A stretch of DNA of 20,000 bases, from IMG/VR virus record IMGVR_UViG_3300031885_002559; one strand, written 5' to 3'. Origin of the DNA: an uncultured virus (IMG/VR IMGVR_UViG_3300031885_002559) (lineage: Duplodnaviria; Heunggongvirae; Uroviricota; Caudoviricetes). This document shows positions 3,606 to 20,000 of this stretch, in pieces (within the stretch, counting starts at the first letter, position 1; the number at the start of each line of letters is the position of its first letter). Made by a program: the position numbers and the translations under genes. The notes below the pieces were generated by a model. That model did not search any database, was not told where the DNA came from, and worked only from the letters and a program-made list of their open reading frames with translations.

Positions 3606-5288
3606 CTATTCGTCAGCCACAGTCTCTTCGGCCTTGGCTGCCGCGTCACCACGGATGAAGTTCGCGATGATCGGCGGGGCCGACGCATCGAAACCTACGA
3701 CATCCAGACCGAACTTGTCGGTCGGATCGTTGACGGTGAAGTCGTTCGCGCACGTAGCCACGAAGACCGACCGGGCATCCCGTACGAACTTCTGCCGGTA
3801 CTCGCGCAGCGCCTGAGCCGGGTGGCGACCGCAGTTGACCTCACCGTCGGTCATGCAGATGAAGCCACCGACCTCCAGCTTGTTCTGGAGCGCGTACTGG
3901 AATGCCAGCGAGATGTCCGTCGAACCGAAGTTCGAGCGTAACGCCCGGTTCATCGCGTCGTCGAGCGACATACCCTTGCGGATACCCAGCTCCACGAACT
4001 GATGCGCAAACCCGAAGACGTGGCACTCTGGCTCCACGCTCAGGTGAATGAGCGACAAGGCCGCCGTTGCCTCGCACGAGCGAAGCACCGAGCCAGCGAT
4101 CTGGCTGCCCATCGAGCCTGAAACATCCAGAGCGATGAGCACCGGCTTGCCGCAGGGTACGACGTTCGGAAACGCCGCGTAGAAGGCTTGGTCAAGGTCC
4201 GCTAGGATCGACGGGACCGGGGTCCACGTGAGATCGCCCTTGATGCCACGGCCCTGCCCGTATACGCGGTGAGCGACCAGCACCGCCATCGGGTGAATGC
4301 GCGACTTCCGCAGGTACGCTGCGTCAGTCAGTCGGTTCCGCACCAGTTTGGCCGCTGCCGACAGCGGCTTCACCAGCCCGATGGAGGTCATCTTGCCGAG
4401 GTTACGGATCAGGGCCGTAAGCGGCATCTTCTGAAGCAGAGCCTCCCAGACGGCGAGGCTGTTCAGGTGCTGCGTCGGGATCGCCTCCCGAGGGAGGTTG
4501 CTCTCGACGATGAGTTCGATGACCCGCTTCTCGGAAGCCGTCTTGGCCTCCTCGAACGCCTTGATCAACTCGGGCAGGTAACGCGTGCGCGACGGGTACT
4601 TCGCGACGGTCTCCTTGGCCTTCCGCTTGACCTCCCGCGCACCCAGCACACCCATGCCGCCAACCATCCAGCGCAGAACCGAGTCCTGCGCGGCGGAGGC
4701 CGCCTTCGGATGAGCCAGACGCAGGATGTCTGCGTGGGTCCAACCGTCACGCTGCTGGTACTTGATCGCCTGAAAGGCCAACTGGTCAGCCTCCCGAGAC
4801 GTGTACCAGCCGCTGGCTGCCCGGCAGATAGCTCGTCCCCATCCACGCAGCGCGTTGATGTACTGCGCGAAGTGGAACAGGTGCGTGCCGATACGGCAAA
4901 CCTTGGGGAGTGCCGCTGCCGCTGCCGCCTTGGCTGCCGTGTCACCGTGGGTGAGCGCCAGCGCCAGAGCGAAGATGGCCGGGTCATTGCGGTACGCAAG
5001 GCCCTTGTCGGAGACCTCAGTGATCCGCTTGACGGCCCGAACACCGTCAGCCTTGATGCAGCGTACGGTCGCGCCGTGCTTCTGCTTCAGGAGTTCCGGC
5101 TCCTTGATGTAGTACGTGCCCTTCTCGACCCCGAGGATCAGGAAGCGGTCAAGGTTTGCCCAGTCATCGACCTGCCAGACAAATCCGCCGTCGGAATCCG
5201 GCACCATGTCGGTGCGGCCCGGCAGAGGCTGGGTAACCGGCGTGTTGGTGGCGCGCCGGTTGAACTGCGTCATGTTGATGGTTGCCAT
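3606..5288 (-). CDS. rsr: Ro60/Rsr RNA-binding protein (TROVE + vWA)
   Basis: LDRFLILG, KYQQRDGWTHADILRLAHP, MPLTALIRNLG, SRIHP motifs; vWA MIDAS DVSGSM; 560 aa. Confidence 0.95.
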   Translation of the reverse strand: MATINMTQFNRRATNTPVTQPLPGRTDMVPDSDGGFVWQVDDWANLDRFLILGVEKGTYYIKEPELLKQKHGATVRCIKADGVRAVKRITEVSDKGLAYRNDPAIFALALALTHGDTAAKAAAAAALPKVCRIGTHLFHFAQYINALRGWGRAICRAASGWYTSREADQLAFQAIKYQQRDGWTHADILRLAHPKAASAAQDSVLRWMVGGMGVLGAREVKRKAKETVAKYPSRTRYLPELIKAFEEAKTASEKRVIELIVESNLPREAIPTQHLNSLAVWEALLQKMPLTALIRNLGKMTSIGLVKPLSAAAKLVRNRLTDAAYLRKSRIHPMAVLVAHRVYGQGRGIKGDLTWTPVPSILADLDQAFYAAFPNVVPCGKPVLIALDVSGSMGSQIAGSVLRSCEATAALSLIHLSVEPECHVFGFAHQFVELGIRKGMSLDDAMNRALRSNFGSTDISLAFQYALQNKLEVGGFICMTDGEVNCGRHPAQALREYRQKFVRDARSVFVATCANDFTVNDPTDKFGLDVVGFDASAPPIIANFIRGDAAAKAEETVADE

Positions 5289-5562: not shown

Positions 5563-6015
5563 TGGTGGAGGCGAGGGGAATCGAACCCCTGTCCTTATGC
5601 GCCTTGCGACGCGTTCACATGCTTCCCCGATTTTGACCAGTAGACTGGAGCCAGACCGGGAACTGCTCTCAGCCGGTGCGGTGAAGACCACCGCCGGTCA
5701 GCGCCGACTTGTTCGCTCGGCACCCAGACTAACCTGCTGTCGTCGGTCGGCCCAGCCTAGCAGGCGTCAGTTGGCGACCGTCGCACGGCGTTTAGGCCGC
5801 AGCGAGTTCCAGAACCTCGGTCTCTTCAAACTGAACGAGGATCGCATCCGGGTTGCGGATGATCTCCGTCGCTTCAGCGAGCAGGGACTCGATGTTCAGG
5901 GTATCAGTTGCTTCGTCAGCAGTTGATGTTTGCCTCGGGGTTTTACGTGGCCAACGAGACATCCACGGCATGTAGCGCACGGTCCAGCAACACAAGTCGA
6001 GACCTGTACGCCCCC
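5563..6015 (-). ncRNA. ssrA: tmRNA
   Basis: 5' GGGGGCG...CTCGAC; 3' T arm and CGCCTCCACCA with G3.U70; tag frame ends ELAAA-stop at 5792. Confidence 0.93.
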
Positions 6016-6513: not shown

Positions 6514-6597
6514 TGGTCGCCACGAGACGAATTGCACGTCCAAGGCTCACTCCTTCTGAGGGAGGCCCGTCTGCTATTCCGGGTAAACCACGTGGCG
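6514..6597 (-). tRNA. Atypical tRNA-Leu(CAG), 84 nt
   Basis: Loop CTCAGAA; extended connector. Confidence 0.75.
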
Positions 6598-6607
6598 TAG
6601 TTAAGGC

Positions 6608-7444
6608 ATGGCAGCAATACACAAACACCGCAGCCTAGCAAAGTTTCGGCGCACGGATAATAGTCCTCATCACTGCATTGAATGCGGTAAACGTCATACC
6701 AACTACCCGTCAAAAATGTGCCAAGACTGTGAAGCGCGCAGGACAGAGACCGAGTTTCCACAGCATGACGTGCCGCCCTATTTTCCACAGCCGGACAGCG
6801 ATGACTTCGATGAGTCAGCCGCCAAGCGCATCGTGGCCGTCATGCTCGAAGACATCCCCTACGGTTCCGACGCCCCGGATCGCGCAGGTGGCCCGGATGA
6901 CCCTTGGCGCAAAGGCGGCATGAATCCCCTTGGGTCCATGCAGTTCTCCGGCCAGCGGGCCGGAGAACAAGTACCAGTGCCAGACGAAGGCCAAGAGGAT
7001 GGCTTTGAAGAGTTCGCTGAGCCCCTCCGCCAGCGTGGCAAGACCGACGACGAGATCATCGCGCTTTGGCAAGCCCATCAAACGGCAGGCCAAGAGCGCC
7101 CGACGGCTAGCCCGGCCCCGACCACGCAACCCGTACCCCCGACCCAGATGGGCCACTCTCGCTTCCAGTGGCGTCCTGAGTCACGCCGCGTAAGCGCCCG
7201 CGAGATGATCGAGCACTGTGGTCACTGCGCCAGCGATCCCGCCGTCAAACGCGGAGCCAAGGTCGAGAAAGAGCACACGCGCAATCCGAAGAAGGCGGCC
7301 AAGATCGCTCAGGACCACCTGAAGGAAAACCCGAAGTACTACCCGAAGACTCCGCCGCCCAAGGGGGCCAAAGAGCGGTTGGCGTATACCAAAGGGCCGA
7401 AGCCAAAGTACGCGTTCTACGCTGGCGCAACCGGGTCAACCTAG
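6608..7444 (+). CDS. Phage protein with N-terminal Zn finger and C-terminal DUF5661-like motif
   Basis: CIEC...CQDC; GAKVEKEHT...AKIAQDHLKENPKYY (family recalled, not searched). Confidence 0.75.
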   Translation: MAAIHKHRSLAKFRRTDNSPHHCIECGKRHTNYPSKMCQDCEARRTETEFPQHDVPPYFPQPDSDDFDESAAKRIVAVMLEDIPYGSDAPDRAGGPDDPWRKGGMNPLGSMQFSGQRAGEQVPVPDEGQEDGFEEFAEPLRQRGKTDDEIIALWQAHQTAGQERPTASPAPTTQPVPPTQMGHSRFQWRPESRRVSAREMIEHCGHCASDPAVKRGAKVEKEHTRNPKKAAKIAQDHLKENPKYYPKTPPPKGAKERLAYTKGPKPKYAFYAGATGST

Positions 7445-7445
7445 A

Positions 7446-7521
7446 TGGTACCCTCGGCTGGAGTCTCGCCAGCAACCTGCGGTTTCGAGGACCGCCGCTC
7501 TATAAATTGAGCTACGAGGGC
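7446..7521 (-). tRNA. tRNA-Arg(TCG)
   Basis: Loop CCTCGAA, cloverleaf, CCA. Confidence 0.85.
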
Positions 7522-7665
7522 ATGAAAGCCAAACAGATCATCGAAGCGATGCTGCCGTATCCAAAGCAGTTCGTCGCCAAAGCGAAGCCGTCTGTCCGTA
7601 CGACGTGGGCCAACAAGAAGCCAAAGGCGAAAGCGTGGTTCATGGGCTGGCGCGGGGGCGGGTAG
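7522..7665 (+). CDS. Small basic protein (47 aa)
   Basis: MKAKQIIEAMLPYPKQF...WRGGG fills the gap; not in the ORF track (<60 aa). Confidence 0.5.
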   Translation: MKAKQIIEAMLPYPKQFVAKAKPSVRTTWANKKPKAKAWFMGWRGGG

Positions 7666-7677
7666 TAGTTAGAGCGT

Positions 7678-8083: not shown

Positions 8084-8158
8084 TGGTGCGGACGGCTGGT
8101 GCTGCCCCAGCGGCCTCCAGATTGTCGTTCTGGCGCTCTACTGCTGAGCTACGCCCGC
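8084..8158 (-). tRNA. tRNA-Val(GAC)
   Basis: Loop ACGACAA, cloverleaf, CCA. Confidence 0.85.
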
Positions 8159-11347: not shown

Positions 11348-11421
11348 TGGTACCCCGTGACGGAATTGCACCGTCTCCATGAGTTTGTAGGACTCAGGCA
11401 CTACTGTTATGCAAACGGGGC
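11348..11421 (-). tRNA. tRNA-Val(TAC)
   Basis: Loop CCTACAA. Confidence 0.82.
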
Positions 11422-11788: not shown

Positions 11789-12916
11789 ATGAGCGATCAA
11801 GAGTTTGACGTGGTCGTGCCGGACATCCCGATGCCGACGGTCGAGCAGTCGGCTGCGATCAAGGACGACTTCACGGGCGGGTTCCGCTTCTCCTTCGTGG
11901 GCAGCGGCCAAGGCGGAAACCGGATCGCTGCAACCTTTCTCAAGCTGGGCTACAAGCGCGTCTGCTGCATCAATACGGCAGATCAGGACATGGCCAACAT
12001 CCGGGTGGCTGACAGCGCCAAGCTGTGCATCGGCGGGGGCGGCGCGGGGAAAAACCCGGCAGTGGCCAAGGCCCTCATCAAAGAGCGCAAGGAGGACGTG
12101 CTCGACTTCATGCGCCGGTCATTCGGCCCGGAGTTCGACCGCACGTTCGTCTGCATCGGCGCTGGCGGAGGCACCGGGGCTGGGACCGCCGTGCAGCTCG
12201 TGGACATCAGCATCGAGCTTCAAAAGTCGCTCAAGTGCGAGGCCCAGAAGGTCGGCGTGATCGTCGCGCTGCCCAAGGCCAGCGAGGGCAAGCGCGTAAA
12301 CGCCAACGCGTACAACGTGCTCAACGACCTTTGCGACCTCTGCGAAAAGGGCTTCGTCTCTCCGCTCATCATCCTCGACAACGAGAAGATCGGCGCGCTC
12401 TACCCAACGCTGGCGGTTGATCCCTTCTGGGACACGGCCAACATGAGCGTCTGCTCGCTCTTCCACCTGTTCAACATCATCAGCACGAAGAACAGCACGT
12501 ACTCGACGTTCGACCGGAATGACCTGAAAACCGTCCTCGACGCCGGGCTGATCACCTTCGGGGCCACGCCGGTTGAGCGCTGGCAGGACGCCACAGACAT
12601 CAGCTACGCCGTCAGGAACAACCTGAAAAAGAACATCCTGTCGGGCGGCATCGACCTGTCCACCGGAACGACCGCCGGGGCCGTGGTTATCGGTGGCCAG
12701 TACGTCCTGACCCAGATTCCGCAGCTCCATCTCGACCACGCCTTCGACCAGTTGAACCGGATGCTCAAGCCCGGCAGCACCGTCCACCGGGGCATCTACC
12801 GAGGCAACCAGAACTCGCTGATCGTATACACGGCGATAGGCGGCCTAGCCCGGCCTGACGCGAAACTTGAAGAACTGAAGCAACTCGGCGATCTTGGCGA
12901 CGCCACACAGGCTTGA
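11789..12916 (+). CDS. Tubulin/FtsZ-family GTPase
   Basis: GSGQGGNRIA, INT..D, GAGKNP, GAGGGTGAG signature, ILDNE. Confidence 0.92.
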   Translation: MSDQEFDVVVPDIPMPTVEQSAAIKDDFTGGFRFSFVGSGQGGNRIAATFLKLGYKRVCCINTADQDMANIRVADSAKLCIGGGGAGKNPAVAKALIKERKEDVLDFMRRSFGPEFDRTFVCIGAGGGTGAGTAVQLVDISIELQKSLKCEAQKVGVIVALPKASEGKRVNANAYNVLNDLCDLCEKGFVSPLIILDNEKIGALYPTLAVDPFWDTANMSVCSLFHLFNIISTKNSTYSTFDRNDLKTVLDAGLITFGATPVERWQDATDISYAVRNNLKKNILSGGIDLSTGTTAGAVVIGGQYVLTQIPQLHLDHAFDQLNRMLKPGSTVHRGIYRGNQNSLIVYTAIGGLARPDAKLEELKQLGDLGDATQA

Positions 12917-14005: not shown

Positions 14006-14082
14006 TGGTGGCGAGGGTCCGAATTGCACGGACGACACCCTGTTCTTCAGACAGGTGCTACTACTGACTGAGCTACCTCGCC
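14006..14082 (-). tRNA. tRNA-Phe(GAA)
   Basis: Loop CTGAAGA. Confidence 0.88.
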
Positions 14083-14589: not shown

Positions 14590-14613
14590 GGCCTAACTAC
14601 GATGTGTCCAAAG

Positions 14614-14688
14614 TGGTGGTCACGGTTGGTGCTGCCCCAACGACCCCGCGCTTATCAAGCGCGTGCTCTGCTGCTGAGCTACGTGACC
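14614..14688 (-). tRNA. tRNA-Ile(GAT)
   Basis: Loop TTGATAA. Confidence 0.88.
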
Positions 14689-15034: not shown

Positions 15035-15054
15035 CGACCTATCTACGAGATGAA

Positions 15055-16010: not shown

Positions 16011-16432
16011 ATGACGTTGTGAAGCAGTGAGTCGTGCAGCGGGCACCCCATCGGCGACGCGCAGCTCGGCACAGCAAATCCGAGGTATCCGTCGCCCGGT
16101 ATGGCGGTGATGTGCCACCACATGTTGACGAAGGCACCACCCACCGCATGTTGAAAGTGTATACGCGTTGACGTAACCTTGTCGGCAACAGCGCGCTCGT
16201 ATTCGTCCATGACACGGCTCAGGTCATCCGGGCGGATGAACTTGACCCACTTCCGCCCCAGAAGCTGGTACTCCTTGGCTCCAAGCAGCGTCTGGTACGG
16301 CGCGTTTACGCGGGTCCAGCCCCCAGCAGCATCGGCAGCAAAAAGCGGCACAGGGCAGTTTTCAACAACTGCTGTTTCAAACTCGACTCGACTTGCGGCC
16401 AGTCTTTCGGCCACGCGCTGCGCATTTCCCAC
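16001..16432 (-). CDS. Stand-alone PAS domain protein
   Basis: ENCPVPLFAADAAG..TRVNAPY..LLG, WVKFIRPDD. Confidence 0.85.
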   Translation of the reverse strand: MGNAQRVAERLAASRVEFETAVVENCPVPLFAADAAGGWTRVNAPYQTLLGAKEYQLLGRKWVKFIRPDDLSRVMDEYERAVADKVTSTRIHFQHAVGGAFVNMWWHITAIPGDGYLGFAVPSCASPMGCPLHDSLLHNVIAK

Positions 16433-16447
16433 TCAATAACTACGAAA

Positions 16448-16903: not shown

Positions 16904-16994
16904 TGGTACCAGCGACAGGACTCGCACCTGTGGTGTTTACCCGGAGGGTGGCAGATTTACAGTCTGCTGCGTTCGCTACTCCGCTCACGCTGGC
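16904..16994 (-). tRNA. tRNA-Tyr(GTA)
   Basis: Loop CTGTAAA, long variable arm. Confidence 0.88.
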
Positions 16995-17000
16995 ATGATT

Positions 17001-17087
17001 TTGACGAGCAAGGGGTGGCGTGGGAGAACCGGGTTGCCCCGGCATTCCATGCAGTGATAGATAACCCACATCCAATCGGCTCATCAA
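17001..17087 (-). ncRNA. Y RNA without a tRNA domain
   Basis: TTGATGAGCCGA...GGTTATC...CCCTTGCTCGTCAA. Confidence 0.78.
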
Positions 17088-17089
17088 AG

Positions 17090-17162
17090 TGGCACGGAGT
17101 CTGGGTGCTGCCCCCAGCAAGACAAGTTTTGGAGACTCGCCCGCACGGCTGGTGCCCTCCGT
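17090..17162 (-). tRNA. tRNA-Trp(CCA)
   Basis: Loop CTCCAAA, G73, short D arm. Confidence 0.75.
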
Positions 17163-17173
17163 ATACAAAGCAG

Positions 17174-17288
17174 TGGGGTAGCTCGGGCCAGAGCGCGGTC
17201 ACACGCAGCTCTGGTGCCCTCAGCGCAGCCTGCGCCTTTAGCTTCTTGCGAGGAACCTTCGTTGTGACGCGTCAGTTCCGAATCCCCA
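17174..17288 (-). ncRNA. Unassigned structured RNA with a probable pseudoknot
   Basis: TGGGG/CCCCA and TCGG/CCGA closing stems; GTCACA is complementary to hairpin loop TGTGAC. Confidence 0.6.
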
Positions 17289-17293
17289 CAAAT

Positions 17294-17367
17294 TGGTGGA
17301 AGTACGGGGAGTCCCACCCCGGTCTCTCGCGTGCGAGGCGAGCGCTCTAGTGCTGAGCTATACCCCC
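17294..17367 (-). tRNA. tRNA-Ala(CGC)
   Basis: Loop CTCGCAC, G3.U70. Confidence 0.88.
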
Positions 17368-17369
17368 AT

Positions 17370-17445
17370 TGGTGGAACCACAGGGACTCGCACCCTGAAC
17401 CTCTGCGATGCCATCGCAGCGCTCTACTGATTGAGCTATGGCCCC
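17370..17445 (-). tRNA. tRNA-Ala(GGC)
   Basis: Loop ATGGCAT, G3.U70. Confidence 0.9.
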
Positions 17446-17456
17446 GATCCGTAAAT

Positions 17457-17533
17457 TGGCTGCCGGGGTTGGCTTCGCTCCAACGATCTCCTGTTTCAGA
17501 GACAGGCGCGTTACTGGACTACGCTACCCGGCA
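17457..17533 (-). tRNA. tRNA-Gln(CTG)
   Basis: Loop CTCTGAA, U1-A72. Confidence 0.88.
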
Positions 17534-17537
17534 GTGG

Positions 17538-17927
17538 CTACTTTCTATTGAGCTGTTCGTAAATGTCCTTGCTCAGAGCGCGCTGCTGAACTCGCTGCTG
17601 GTCCTGCTGCTGGACCTGCTGCTCGATAAGGCGCTGCTGGTGGGCATCCCCGCCAAATAACCTTGGAATGATCGGCGGCGTTTCCACAGGCTTCGTTTGC
17701 TCCAAGACTTTGGTCAACTGGTTCGTGATCTCGTTCATCCGAACCTCGTAGGTGGCCAGCTTGTCCGAGAGCTGTTTGATGACAAACTCCAGCTTGGTCT
17801 CAGTGGTCCTGACCTTGTCGTCTACGGTCGTCGCACCGCGCCAAACGATGGCCGCTGCGCCCATAAACGCCCCAACGACCAAGGCTGAGACAGCGTTGGT
17901 CACGATCTTCTCCCACTCGATCTTCAT
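17538..17927 (-). CDS. Membrane-anchored coiled-coil protein
   Basis: N-terminal TM segment AVSALVVGAFMGAAAIVW; heptad region; Q-rich tail. Confidence 0.8.
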   Translation of the reverse strand: MKIEWEKIVTNAVSALVVGAFMGAAAIVWRGATTVDDKVRTTETKLEFVIKQLSDKLATYEVRMNEITNQLTKVLEQTKPVETPPIIPRLFGGDAHQQRLIEQQVQQQDQQRVQQRALSKDIYEQLNRK

Positions 17928-17943
17928 GCCCTACTTACGAAAT

Positions 17944-18017
17944 TGGTGGAAGTGACCGGAGTCGCACCGGCATCCTCTGCTTGCAAGGCAGACGCTCTGC
18001 TGTTGAGCTACACCCCC
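17944..18017 (-). tRNA. tRNA-Ala(TGC)
   Basis: Loop CTTGCAA, G3.U70. Confidence 0.9.
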
Positions 18018-18019
18018 AG

Positions 18020-18113
18020 TCAACCACCCCCTTTTACGCTGACGGACAGTATCGTGTATACAGGCTCGCACGACCGGCCTGCTGCCGTCCCACGGACAAG
18101 CCAAGGTGGTTGA
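18020..18113 (-). ncRNA. Unassigned structured RNA (94 nt)
   Basis: TCAACCACC/GGTGGTTGA closing stem; GACGG/CCGTC; TCGTG/CACGA. Confidence 0.6.
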
Positions 18114-18117
18114 AAAA

Positions 18118-18255
18118 CTGTCCGCAGGAGTCGGTGTCTTCCTCCGCTTGCGCGTGGTCGCTTCACCCTACCCGCCGGAGACTACGTCAATGCACTCCGG
18201 TTCTCTCCGCCAGAGGGACTGACGAGGTCGCCCCACGGAGCCGTGTGTCGGACAG
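18118..18255 (-). ncRNA. Unassigned structured RNA (138 nt)
   Basis: CTGTCCG/CGGACAG closing stem; CCGGAG/CTCCGG hairpin. Confidence 0.55.
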
Positions 18256-18260
18256 AAAAT

Positions 18261-18367
18261 GACCGGCCAGAGTAACCAGAGGTTGCAACCGCTGATCCCG
18301 TGCTGTGTGGCCTTCGCATCCACCCCGCGCCGCGTCCGGCGCAGTACTCCCGGTTTGTCGTACGGTC
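18261..18367 (-). ncRNA. Unassigned structured RNA (107 nt)
   Basis: GACCG/CGGTC closing stem; CGGGAGTA/TACTCTG; GCGCCG/CGGCGC. Confidence 0.5.
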
Positions 18368-18373
18368 TGAAAT

Positions 18374-18447
18374 TGGAGCGGGTGAACGGTAACGATCCGT
18401 CGTCCTCGCGTTGGCAACGCGACGCTCTGCCATTGAGCTACACCCGC
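18374..18447 (-). tRNA. tRNA-Gly(GCC)
   Basis: Loop TTGCCAA, U73. Confidence 0.9.
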
Positions 18448-18460
18448 ACCACAAATTGAA

Positions 18461-18503
18461 CCCCGGCGCGCTCTCCCAGAGTTTGGAGATCGACGCGCCG
18501 GGG
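18461..18503 (-). other. GC-rich hairpin at the head of the array
   Basis: CCCCGGCGCG/CGCGCCGGGG 10-bp stem. Confidence 0.6.
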
Positions 18504-18650
18504 CGCTTAACAAAGAACAAACACCCTATTCGCCTCTGTCGAGGTCGCCCGCAGGTTTCATAGTCCTCTCGGACCTTCACGGCGGTCTTCGCGGCCTTAT
18601 CGGATGCCGCTTCCGTCTCCCCCCGGAGCGTAAGATGTAATCCAAAAATC

Positions 18651-18682
18651 AAAAACCCCACTACCTTTCGGGTAGCGGGGTT
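18651..18682 (-). terminator. Attenuator terminator upstream of the RNA array
   Basis: CCCCGCTACC-CGAAA-GGTAGTGGGG followed by TTTTT. Confidence 0.85.
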
Positions 18683-18703
18683 GGCGAAAGTTCTTTGTCG
18701 TGC

Positions 18704-18829
18704 CTACCCGCTACCTTCCACTGGTTCCTCACTACGCACGACAGCAAATGACATGGCGCAGTTGGCCCAGTGGATAAGGGCATAATCCTGCCCTTTACCC
18801 GTCGGGGTATTTTGCAACCTTGCTGTCAC
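18704..18829 (-). CDS. Putative leader peptide of the attenuator (41 codons; alternative GTG at 18841)
   Basis: VTARLQNTPTGKGQDYALIHWANCAMSFAVVRSEEPVEGSG*; the last codons are the antiterminator strand. Confidence 0.6.
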   Translation of the reverse strand: MTARLQNTPTGKGQDYALIHWANCAMSFAVVRSEEPVEGSG

Positions 18830-18943
18830 TATCGAGTTCACCAGTTCAGTTCAGTTCTGACGAGGCACACGCCCCGGCAGTGCGCAAACTTTCGCACAGC
18901 CACCCAGAATCGCGCAAGAACTTTTTTCGACTTTTTTAGATGA

Positions 18944-19279
18944 CTACTTTTTCCGAGGCAATTCACCGGCATCGCTGACGAATACCGGGGCCAGCGTTTG
19001 GCAGACTTCCTTGCGCATACCGGGCAACAAGATGTTGCGGACCAGCTTGACCTCGGGGCTCGTGCCATCGCGCCACTTCGTACGATAGCTCACGCCGCGC
19101 TTGTAGCCCTCAGCGGTCTTGGCTTTCGTGAGCCGGTATTGAATCTGGCATGGAGTCAGGCCCGTCTCGCGCTGGATCGCATCCGTAGACTGCCCAAGCC
19201 GGGCGAGAACAACGGCCTCGACCTCCAACACGGTGGGATCGCTGAACTTGATTTTGTGCCGCGTTTTGATCTTTCGCAT
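18944..19279 (-). CDS. Small HTH-like DNA-binding protein
   Basis: LARLGQSTDAIQRETGLTPCQIQYRL. Confidence 0.7.
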   Translation of the reverse strand: MRKIKTRHKIKFSDPTVLEVEAVVLARLGQSTDAIQRETGLTPCQIQYRLTKAKTAEGYKRGVSYRTKWRDGTSPEVKLVRNILLPGMRKEVCQTLAPVFVSDAGELPRKK

Positions 19280-19374
19280 AAATCTTCGGCCTCTTTCGAG
19301 GCCGTGGGTTGTTTAGTCTTGGTCGGGGTTGTCGGGTCAAGTGCAGTCTTGGCACGGTAAGGCCCGTAACGAAA

Positions 19375-19773
19375 TCAACTGTGCTTGCTGGCCACGTCCA
19401 TCGCCGTATTCAACACGCGCAGGTTCAGGCCGCAGCACGGGCAGTAGTTCGCGCCCGCTGGGAACGCAGGACGATCAAACACCTTCTTGCGAGGGCGGTA
19501 ACCGCCTATGCCTTTGGCCACGCCGGGATTGGCTTCGCGCCACGCCCGCGTGCGCCGGTCGATGTGCTCCAGCGTGCCGGTCTCCGTTGCTGCCGCAGGC
19601 TCGATGATGCCGGTGTGCCCGTTGGCCTTGGCCCGGCCCGCGCCTCTGACCGCGCCTCGGATATTCTTCTTGTGGGTTCGGCCCACGTGCATGTTCAGGG
19701 CGAGAATCGCTCGGCCCTCGGTTGGTTTTGTAAAATGTCTCTCACACTGGTCACAATGTTTCGTTGTTGGCAT
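19375..19773 (-). CDS. Zn-finger protein
   Basis: CDQC...HVGRTH (C2H2-like) and NYCPCCG; GGAAA upstream of ATG. Confidence 0.75.
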   Translation of the reverse strand: MPTTKHCDQCERHFTKPTEGRAILALNMHVGRTHKKNIRGAVRGAGRAKANGHTGIIEPAAATETGTLEHIDRRTRAWREANPGVAKGIGGYRPRKKVFDRPAFPAGANYCPCCGLNLRVLNTAMDVASKHS

Positions 19774-19791
19774 GTTTCCTTTGTTTGGTGG

Positions 19792-19977
19792 TTAGTACTC
19801 TCGATCTGCATTGACACTCGACCCCGGCGCGGGCATGGCGACGCCCATCATCTCGTAAAGAGCTTCCTCCGTGATGCGCGAAACGTTGTGCCTCTCGGCT
19901 GCGGCAGCCTTGGTGGCCCCGCCTTCCGCACCTTCGACCAGATAGTGGACCTTGGCTGATACGCTCGACTTCACCAT
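19792..19977 (-). CDS. Small hypothetical protein
   Basis: 61 aa; AGGTGGA SD-like sequence upstream. Confidence 0.5.
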   Translation of the reverse strand: MVKSSVSAKVHYLVEGAEGGATKAAAAERHNVSRITEEALYEMMGVAMPAPGSSVNADREY

Positions 19978-20000
19978 TCCACCTGCCTTCTCAATCCGGC

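Follow-up and report, generated by a model that had tools for sequence, protein, structure and literature searches.

A candidate ribosome-dependent attenuator with an amino-acid-complete leader ahead of a phage tRNA array

A 20-kb stretch of DNA from an uncultured virus (IMG/VR record IMGVR_UViG_3300031885_002559; 59% G+C), referred to here as the window and read by us as part of an uncultured jumbo phage, contains an array of transfer RNA (tRNA) genes and a transfer-messenger RNA (tmRNA) gene. The array is headed by a short leader, which consists of an open reading frame (ORF) that encodes all 20 amino acids and an intrinsic terminator, T1, whose 5' arm can pair with the last codons of the ORF. 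The leader, the terminator, and the array are all on the minus strand. Judging from sequence comparisons, we see about an even chance that this leader is a ribosome-dependent transcription attenuator with an amino-acid-complete ORF that gates the tRNA/tmRNA array; as such, it would probably raise the expression of the tRNA genes when ribosomes decode slowly. In the proposed mechanism, a host-type promoter would start a leader RNA of ~230 nucleotides (nt) with an ORF of 41 to 46 codons, and the last 9 to 12 bases of this ORF would pair with the 5' arm of the terminator to give an antiterminator. A ribosome arriving at the stop codon in time would cover the antiterminator strand, allowing the terminator to form and transcription to end before the tRNA genes, whereas a lagging ribosome would leave this strand free, so that the antiterminator would form first and RNA polymerase would enter the array. 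A leader with all 20 amino acids would report slow decoding of many kinds of codons, for example when charged or intact host tRNAs are lost, and would raise the supply of phage tRNAs.

The features of the leader and its surroundings are listed in Table 1. An initial annotation, made from the window alone, had described the leader ORF at positions 18829 to 18704 as having 41 codons, of which 34 are distinct and the first 21 are all different, with all 20 amino acids represented, and a recount agrees with each of these figures. An alternative in-frame GTG codon at position 18841 would give a 45-codon form that likewise encodes all 20 amino acids. There is no enrichment in codons for any single amino acid, the most common residue being Ala (5 of 41), and the same pattern is seen in all seven leader peptides described below. 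The same annotation had noted a perfect match between the last three codons of the ORF and the 5' arm of the terminator; these codons are indeed the exact reverse complement, over 9 nt, of CCCGCTACC (positions 18679 to 18671). T1 itself has a stem of 12 base pairs with a 5-nt loop and is followed by a T-rich tail. The two competing structures have similar predicted strengths: T1 in the window is at -21.2 kcal/mol and the antiterminator hairpin with positions 18679 to 18671 is at -20.9 kcal/mol, while across the loci compared the antiterminator ranges from -18.7 to -22.2 kcal/mol and the terminator from -19.4 to -27.4 kcal/mol.

Table 1. Features of the leader region and the head of the tRNA array (window coordinates)
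Feature	Position	Strand	Basis or remark
111-residue gene, probably a small helix-turn-helix protein	18944-19279	minus	ORF directly upstream of the leader
Promoter-like block (A-rich stretch, TTGCGC, GAAAGT)	18888-18935	minus	conservation
P0, 5' hairpin of the presumed transcript	18857-18880	minus	RNAfold
Leader ORF, GTG start, 41 sense codons, TAG stop (18706-18704)	18829-18704	minus	all 20 amino acids
Helix L, start-region strand GACAGCAA with TTGCTGTC	18820-18827 with 18747-18740	minus	8 perfect pairs
P1, hairpin inside the ORF, AAGGGCA / TGCCCTT	18776-18795	minus	RNAfold
Helix X, 5' strand TGTCGTGC with GCACGACA	18736-18743 with 18702-18695	minus	pairing
Antiterminator strand GGTAGCGGG, last three sense codons GGT AGC GGG	18715-18707	minus	pairing
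Intrinsic terminator T1, stem 18682-18654, tail TTTGATTTTT	18682-18644	minus	terminator scan
Conserved structured spacer, ~190 nt, ending in hairpin T2	18448-18643	minus	alignment and RNAalifold
tRNA-Gly(GCC), first gene of the array	18374-18447	minus	ARAGORN/Rfam

Relatives of the window were found through its tubulin gene, which led to the IMG/VR contig L004 (71% tubulin identity) and then, via a two-sequence alignment, to 18 metagenome loci. Searches with blastn and nhmmer show the leader in L004, L011, L012, L014, and L017 (the sequence of L015 is identical to that of L014). No locus that extends to the head of the array lacks it; the remaining array-bearing loci end within the array. Six DNA contexts, the window and these five, all from a single clade, are available for comparison, and a further homologue from a protein collection, P0017, brings the number of leader peptides to seven. 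Each leader is followed by 20 to 33 tRNA genes on the same strand, the first of which is tRNA-Gly(GCC) in the window, L004, L011, L014, and L017. In L012, and only there, tRNA-Gly is preceded by an 82-nt tRNA-like gene (6608-6689, minus strand) that is called as tRNA-Phe with the anticodon AAA.

The geometry of the leader is the same throughout. An ORF of 41 to 46 codons lies between the promoter-like block and the first tRNA gene in all six loci, its stop codon (TAG in five loci, TAA in L017) directly follows CGGG and abuts the antiterminator strand, and the terminator arm begins 21 to 25 nt after the stop codon. A ribosome at the end of the ORF would, in this position, mask the antiterminator strand. 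In the relatives, AGGTAAGCGGG pairs with CCCGCTTACCT over 11 to 12 base pairs; overall, the antiterminator is perfect over 9 to 12 pairs in five of the six loci and has a one-base bulge in L004. The 5' arm of T1 contains GCTACC in the window and L004 and GCTTACC in the other four loci, and the extra base is matched in both partner strands, the upstream one (GGTAGC versus GGTAAGC) and the 3' arm of the terminator. The net change in the ORF over this stretch is 3 nt, which keeps both the pairing and the reading frame. The 5' arm of T1 is nearly invariant, as expected of a strand with two partners; the 3' arm is more variable and, in four of the six loci, contains G-U pairs or one mismatch. The RNAalifold consensus of the region is the antiterminator pairing. 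The coupling of the ORF to the terminator, which the initial annotation had drawn from one sequence, is thus kept in the relatives: wherever the head of the array can be read, they retain the ORF, the position of its stop codon, the antiterminator/terminator geometry, and the full set of amino acids, from which we conclude that the design is real and under selection. The comparison of related arrays suggested in the initial annotation thus turned out as that annotation had predicted.

All 20 amino acids are found in seven of the seven peptides, whose identity to that of the window is 23 to 50%. By comparison, among 15,013 stop-free 41-codon segments in the six reading frames of the window, only 24 (0.16%) encode all 20 amino acids, 0.76% have at least 34 distinct codons, and 0.78% have at least the first 21 codons distinct. 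In long ORFs of the phage clade, complete sets are found in 70 of 15,382 segments of 41 residues (0.46%) and in 0.46 to 1.0% of segments of 41 to 45 residues. Compositional rarity in a single window, noticed after the fact, is weak evidence, and it is the replication in the relatives that counts. There, the residues Phe, Asp, Met, and Gln are found in different alignment columns in different relatives. Phe occupies four different columns, and Asp is found in the I-K-D motif or near the C terminus, with at least one of the two in every peptide. The L014 peptide has lost the Met of the M-K-G-Y motif and has another Met elsewhere, and in the L004 peptide neither of the usual Gln positions is kept, a Gln being found elsewhere. 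Amino acid completeness has probably been selected, in what is a small sample from one clade.

The pairing between the end of the ORF and the terminator cannot be put down to chance. In the window and the related loci (1,170,672 bases), 196 terminator-like hairpins were examined for a perfect complement of 8 nt or more on their upstream side. Such a complement is found for 8 of them, each of which is this element or one of its homologues, and for none of the other 188. This bears on another view, namely, that the ORF is an ordinary small protein gene, or that the region, closed by a terminator of its own, is the 3' end of the transcript of the upstream helix-turn-helix gene or of a small RNA, that the array is transcribed from a separate downstream promoter, and that the complement has no regulatory role. 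We regard this as improbable. The conservation of the ORF fits this view, as do the ~200 nt conserved between the terminator and the first tRNA gene, which leave room for a phage-type promoter; small RNAs derived from attenuators are also known elsewhere (peTrpL, as described in the available part of the source). It is at odds with an upstream complement that, the bulge in L004 aside, is kept perfect and has changed together with the terminator arm, and with a stop codon that abuts this complement in every locus. Nor does the consensus promoter scan list a sigma-70-like promoter between T1 and tRNA-Gly.

Also at odds with a small protein gene is the scarcity of relatives of the peptide outside this context, of which a hidden Markov model (HMM) search of 1.84 billion representative proteins yielded a single one. 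This search gave 81 matches, of which P0017, a 46-residue protein that aligns end to end, is the only true homologue. The other 80 matches, to proteins of 216 to 4,012 residues, cover only short stretches of the profile and were set aside as spurious; the three that were inspected (P0002, P0065, and P0079) are tandem-repeat proteins. A word-index protein search with the peptide alignment found no match, and an exact look-up in the protein collection showed that the six locus peptides are absent from it and that P0017 is a singleton.

Several features argue in favor of translation of the ORF. The homologous frame is open in all six loci, while the other five frames contain 0 to 4 stop codons each and are open in only 1 of 30 instances. 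In the five relatives, an in-frame ATG or GTG is found 15 nt before a shared I-K motif, and the distance from this motif to the stop codon is 35, 38, 36, 37, and 38 codons. Since the length has changed several times and every change has preserved the frame, the ORF appears to be read by ribosomes. The leader start lacks a Shine-Dalgarno sequence; because other genes of the phage lack it as well, this absence is not evidence against translation. These observations can be set against another possibility, to which we assign a low probability, that the leader is an untranslated structured RNA switch in which the decision is made by a protein (the adjacent helix-turn-helix protein or a phage antiterminator), by an RNA such as tRNA, or by a small ligand, and that the open frame is incidental. 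The leader RNA (positions 18884 to 18651) is indeed highly structured, with a predicted energy of -98.3 kcal/mol (z = -4.65; 0 of 200 shuffled sequences fold as well), it contains several conserved helices, it adjoins a conserved gene that looks like a regulator, and its start has no recognizable ribosome-binding motif. An incidental frame is hard to reconcile with the fact that, of the six frames, only that of the leader ORF stays open in all six loci, with length changes that keep both the frame and the position of the stop codon, and with a stop codon that in L017 has changed from TAG to TAA instead of being lost. Likewise, no Rfam family, T-box included, matches the leader at its gathering score.

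Two short motifs deserve mention here. The sequence TCGTAGTTA is found 8 times in the window (with at most one mismatch; 1.66 expected), 4 to 7 nt before the starts of phage genes on both strands that lack a Shine-Dalgarno sequence, e.g., at positions 14594 to 14602, 16437 to 16445, and 15040 to 15048 on the minus strand and 6595 to 6603 and 7663 to 7671 on the plus strand. It may represent a phage-specific initiation or promoter signal. The related sequence CGTAGT is kept inside the leader ORF. The second motif, AGGAGGT, is a perfect Shine-Dalgarno-like sequence located at the 5' end of the antiterminator strand in four leaders out of six (on the minus strand at approximately 16339 to 16345 in L011, 6948 to 6954 in L012, 14266 to 14272 in L014, and 18976 to 18982 in L017); the window has GAAGGT at this place. 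It is located 5 nt before the last sense codon, and the phage's own genes have no such sites. One could speculate that AGGAGGT holds the terminating ribosome in place.

Besides the antiterminator, the leader RNA contains four further predicted helices. The MAFFT alignments are out of register for the helix strands, and the helices were read sequence by sequence. A hairpin of a different sequence is found at the position of P0 in all five relatives. The counterpart of P1 in the relatives is a palindrome that encodes M-K-G-Y-x-L-H, with stem changes such as GGGA/TCCC and GGGG/CCCC; this hairpin may serve as a pause signal. Helix L, which pairs the start codon region with a segment just 5' of helix X and overlaps the latter by 2 to 4 bases, is matched by 0.65% of shuffled sequences in the window and is formed by other sequences in L011 (11 pairs), L017 (8 pairs), L012 (7 pairs), and L004 (6 pairs). 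It was not found in L014, where there is only a 4-pair match at the level of shuffled sequences (0.91). Helix X pairs a segment of the ORF located 36 to 43 nt before the stop codon with the 7 to 8 bases directly after it. It is found in the same two places in all six loci with different sequences (TGTGTC/GACACA, GTGTGCC/GGCACAC, GTGCCGT/ACGGCAC, and others), with shuffle fractions of 0.014 to 0.29 for the single sequences.

Helix X may act as the counterpart of the 1:2 hairpin in the trp leader, ensuring termination when nothing is translated. Helix X and the antiterminator strand have no bases in common, so that the two could also coexist as a pseudoknot. If helix X does block the antiterminator, the geometry of the ribosome footprint implies that only a stall at approximately codons -18 to -8 before the stop codon would disrupt helix X without covering the antiterminator strand. 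Codons throughout the ORF could nevertheless matter if, following a pause at P1, ribosome and polymerase compete in a kinetic race. Accordingly modified, the initial annotation keeps its leader-terminator geometry; its statement that a stall at any codon leads to read-through is too simple, as it left the conserved helices X, L, and P1 out of account.

The promoter-like block upstream of the leader has a -35-like hexamer, TTGCGC (18917-18912), and a weak -10-like hexamer, GAAAGT (18893-18888), separated by an 18-nt spacer. The sequence AAAGTTCTTGC in this block is found in each of the six leaders (L017 has one mismatch) and occurs once in the window (0.15 expected). The five relatives have an A-rich run followed by TTCTTGC and, after 16 to 18 nt, by TAnnGT at the place of the -10 element. 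This conservation suggests that the block serves as the promoter of the leader. In the five relatives, an 8-bp palindrome, TGTATACA (TGTATACG in L014), is found between the -35-like and -10-like hexamers, e.g., at approximately 16520 to 16530 in L011; it is absent from the window. The helix-turn-helix protein encoded nearby could use this palindrome as its operator.

The spacer between T1 and tRNA-Gly is also conserved; its counterpart in L011 is at positions 16078 to 16273. It contains an invariant block, GGGTGTTTGTTCT, at positions 18526 to 18514, and ends in hairpin T2 (arms at 18503-18494 and 18470-18461), behind which a T-rich run extends up to tRNA-Gly. RNAalifold predicts 59 base pairs in the spacer, 15 of them with compensatory changes, most of which are in T2. 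Neither the leader nor the spacer matches any Rfam family above its threshold; there are only weak, terminator-driven matches with E values of 0.05 to 10, and the T-box covariance model has no match with an E value of up to 10 in positions 18050 to 19000 of the window or 16060 to 16620 of L011. A partial likeness of the spacer block to the T-box motif was set aside because no Rfam match reached the threshold. The spacer could be a second control point or attenuator, a processing signal, an unrecognized promoter site, or an unknown RNA. Because this conserved structured spacer and T2 lie between T1 and the array, the statement that T1 controls the array should be taken with caution.

Several points weigh against a leader that gates the array by sensing all 20 amino acids. 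At the upstream end, the window has a poor -10 element, and its promoter-like block was missed by the consensus promoter scan; the exact start codon is uncertain, and the start lacks the TCGTAGTTA motif found before other genes. At the downstream end, a promoter between T1 and tRNA-Gly is possible, and T2 may add to or override the control by T1, making control of the array two-tiered. Within the ORF, stalls in its early part might lead to termination, not read-through, owing to helices X and L, and the leader translations combined with the footprint geometry suggest that the effective stall stretch holds only ~8 to 9 kinds of amino acids. The conservation of the M-K-G-Y-x-L-H peptide, the motif that is kept best, is explained by the RNA hairpin P1 and not by the peptide. 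Finally, a per-lineage null model, in which nonconsensus residues are redrawn, gives a complete set with a probability of 0.024 for the window and of 0.31, 1.0, 0.14, 0.29, and 0.45 for the relatives.

These last points are those that would favor an attenuator that is real and ribosome dependent, with completeness not being sensed: what matters would be a short critical stretch or the overall speed and coupling of translation, and the full set of amino acids would be a by-product of a sequence that encodes overlapping helices. We view this as rather unlikely, if worth keeping in mind. The conserved helices P1, L, and X do overlap the ORF, and the per-lineage null is modest for four relatives (0.14 to 0.45). 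A by-product is harder to square with complete sets in all seven peptides against the background frequencies given above, in sequences that have diverged as far as these from that of the window, or with single-copy residues that have been relocated and not lost. When residues are shuffled within alignment columns, all seven peptides are complete in 0 of 200,000 trials, and without the sequence of the window all six are complete in 0.26% of trials. By treating the peptides as if they were not related by descent, however, such shuffles overstate the significance.

The broadest version of the attenuator proposal, which we put forward tentatively as a possibility that is less than even, is that of a "pangram" leader, in which selection keeps all 20 amino acids, slow decoding of any codon class flips the antiterminator, and expression of the phage tRNAs and tmRNA is boosted. 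Such a leader would act as a general sensor of decoding capacity and would have arisen more than once in unrelated phage lineages. The physiological signal could be tRNA cleavage by host defense nucleases, host shut-off, or starvation, all of which could slow decoding.

The 111-residue protein encoded directly upstream of the leader has homologues (32 to 42% identity to that of the window) in the same place in L004, L011, L012, and L017. The L014 copy is located ~700 nt further upstream and was matched only via the L004 protein. Weak matches to the HTH_10 domain are seen in four of the five members of this family, with a best E value of 5e-4, and none in the copy from the window. A word search with the 111-residue protein found only itself, and a structure search with it gave only chance-level matches.

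The window contains 27 tRNA genes, all on the minus strand, of which 23 are called by ARAGORN and 4 more are found by Rfam. The latter matches (47 to 52 bits) are at positions 8087 to 8158, 11351 to 11421, 14617 to 14688, and 16907 to 16994 on the minus strand, where ARAGORN made no call; conversely, ARAGORN calls at 853 to 927, 7446 to 7521, and 14006 to 14082 have no Rfam entry. The tmRNA gene (Rfam; 5563-6015, minus strand) and a Ro60/TROVE gene (3606-5288, minus strand) are among the genes of the array. The Ro60/TROVE protein shares ~40% identity with Ro-like proteins from actinophages and from a Sinorhizobium jumbo phage. A tubulin/TubZ-like gene (11789-12916) is located in the middle of the array on the plus strand, opposite to the tRNA genes, and further phage-type genes between the tRNAs encode HNH and PD-(D/E)XK nucleases and a PAS protein. 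The order of the Ro60, tubulin, PAS, and small upstream genes is common to the window and L004. The DNA just downstream of tRNA-Gly (18168-18323 in the window and 19860-19937 in L004) is also kept between the two; translations of the stretch at 18168 to 18323 agree at 70 to 79% in several frames, suggesting that it is the DNA or RNA that is conserved. It could encode another small RNA or a degenerate tRNA.

DNA of the window is present in nine sediment metagenome runs, none of which is listed as an RNA run. A blastn comparison of positions 17000 to 20000 with cultured phages and plasmids gave only tRNA-sized matches, and the window tubulin has no match among cultured phages. In IMG/VR, 61 loci encode distant relatives of this tubulin, including L004; the other 60 show 36 to 64% identity, and nhmmer finds the leader in none of these 60. 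A tRNA scan of 11 distant tubulin loci (51 to 64% identity) shows that 10 of them have no tRNAs nearby and one has 2. Tubulin relatives at ~70% identity are always found inside such tRNA arrays. Scans of IMG/VR with neighboring proteins (of 111, 129, and 132 residues) gave no useful relatives, and exact or degenerate DNA patterns of the leader matched only the contig of L004 in that database. In genome contigs, the same kind of patterns gave 7 matches, all of them by chance and none with a terminator.

Phage tRNA arrays have been discussed as aids in codon usage and as countermeasures to host nucleases that cut tRNAs; to our knowledge, little has been established on how their expression is controlled. 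If the proposed mechanism is true, the leader would be the first described attenuator of tRNA genes and the first attenuator that senses general decoding capacity and not a single amino acid. Its 230-nt cassette would provide a simple experimental handle and possibly a compact natural biosensor of translation stress. A full-text literature search found no attenuator of tRNA genes and no amino-acid-complete leader; most subscription journals are outside its coverage, so this is no proof of absence.

Among known systems, the leaders of the enterobacterial trp, his, leu, thr, ilv, and pheA operons are those in which the position of a ribosome on a short ORF decides which hairpin forms. The phage leader resembles them in having a short 5' leader ORF, an intrinsic terminator whose 5' arm has an alternative upstream partner, and a stop codon placed for masking of that partner, and its further helices may play the roles of the 1:2 or pause hairpins. 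In contrast to these leaders, it has no run of codons for one sensed amino acid, encoding instead all 20, with at most 5 of 41 alike; the genes under its putative control are tRNA genes and not those of biosynthetic enzymes; and the strand of its helix X is separate from the antiterminator strand, with no overlap. T-box riboswitches bind tRNA directly and need no translation. They are similar to the proposed phage switch in sensing the tRNA supply and in using antitermination ahead of translation-related genes, whereas the phage leader has a conserved open frame and no match to the T-box model at its gathering score.

The closest in spirit, as far as the available parts of the two sources go, are two broad-range sensors. 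In mycobacteria, stalling on the upstream ORF (uORF) of whiB7 is believed to cause antitermination into the downstream gene; this uORF is activated when any of many different amino acids, tRNAs, or synthetases is lost, and its composition sets the response (PMC10274678, available part). The whiB7 uORF is enriched in alanine and controls a transcription factor (PMC10274678), whereas the phage leader has the full set of 20 amino acids and stands before an array of tRNA genes; the two are unrelated in sequence. In Escherichia coli, toiL, the uORF of topAI-yjhQ, is described as "multipurpose": it responds to many translation stresses, with stalls at different positions altering the structure of the downstream RNA (PMC12121999, available part). 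The phage leader is followed by no protein gene or ribosome-binding site. Where toiL, according to that text, frees a ribosome-binding site and avoids Rho-dependent termination (PMC12121999), the phage leader would act through an intrinsic terminator and an antiterminator that are coupled to the end of its ORF.

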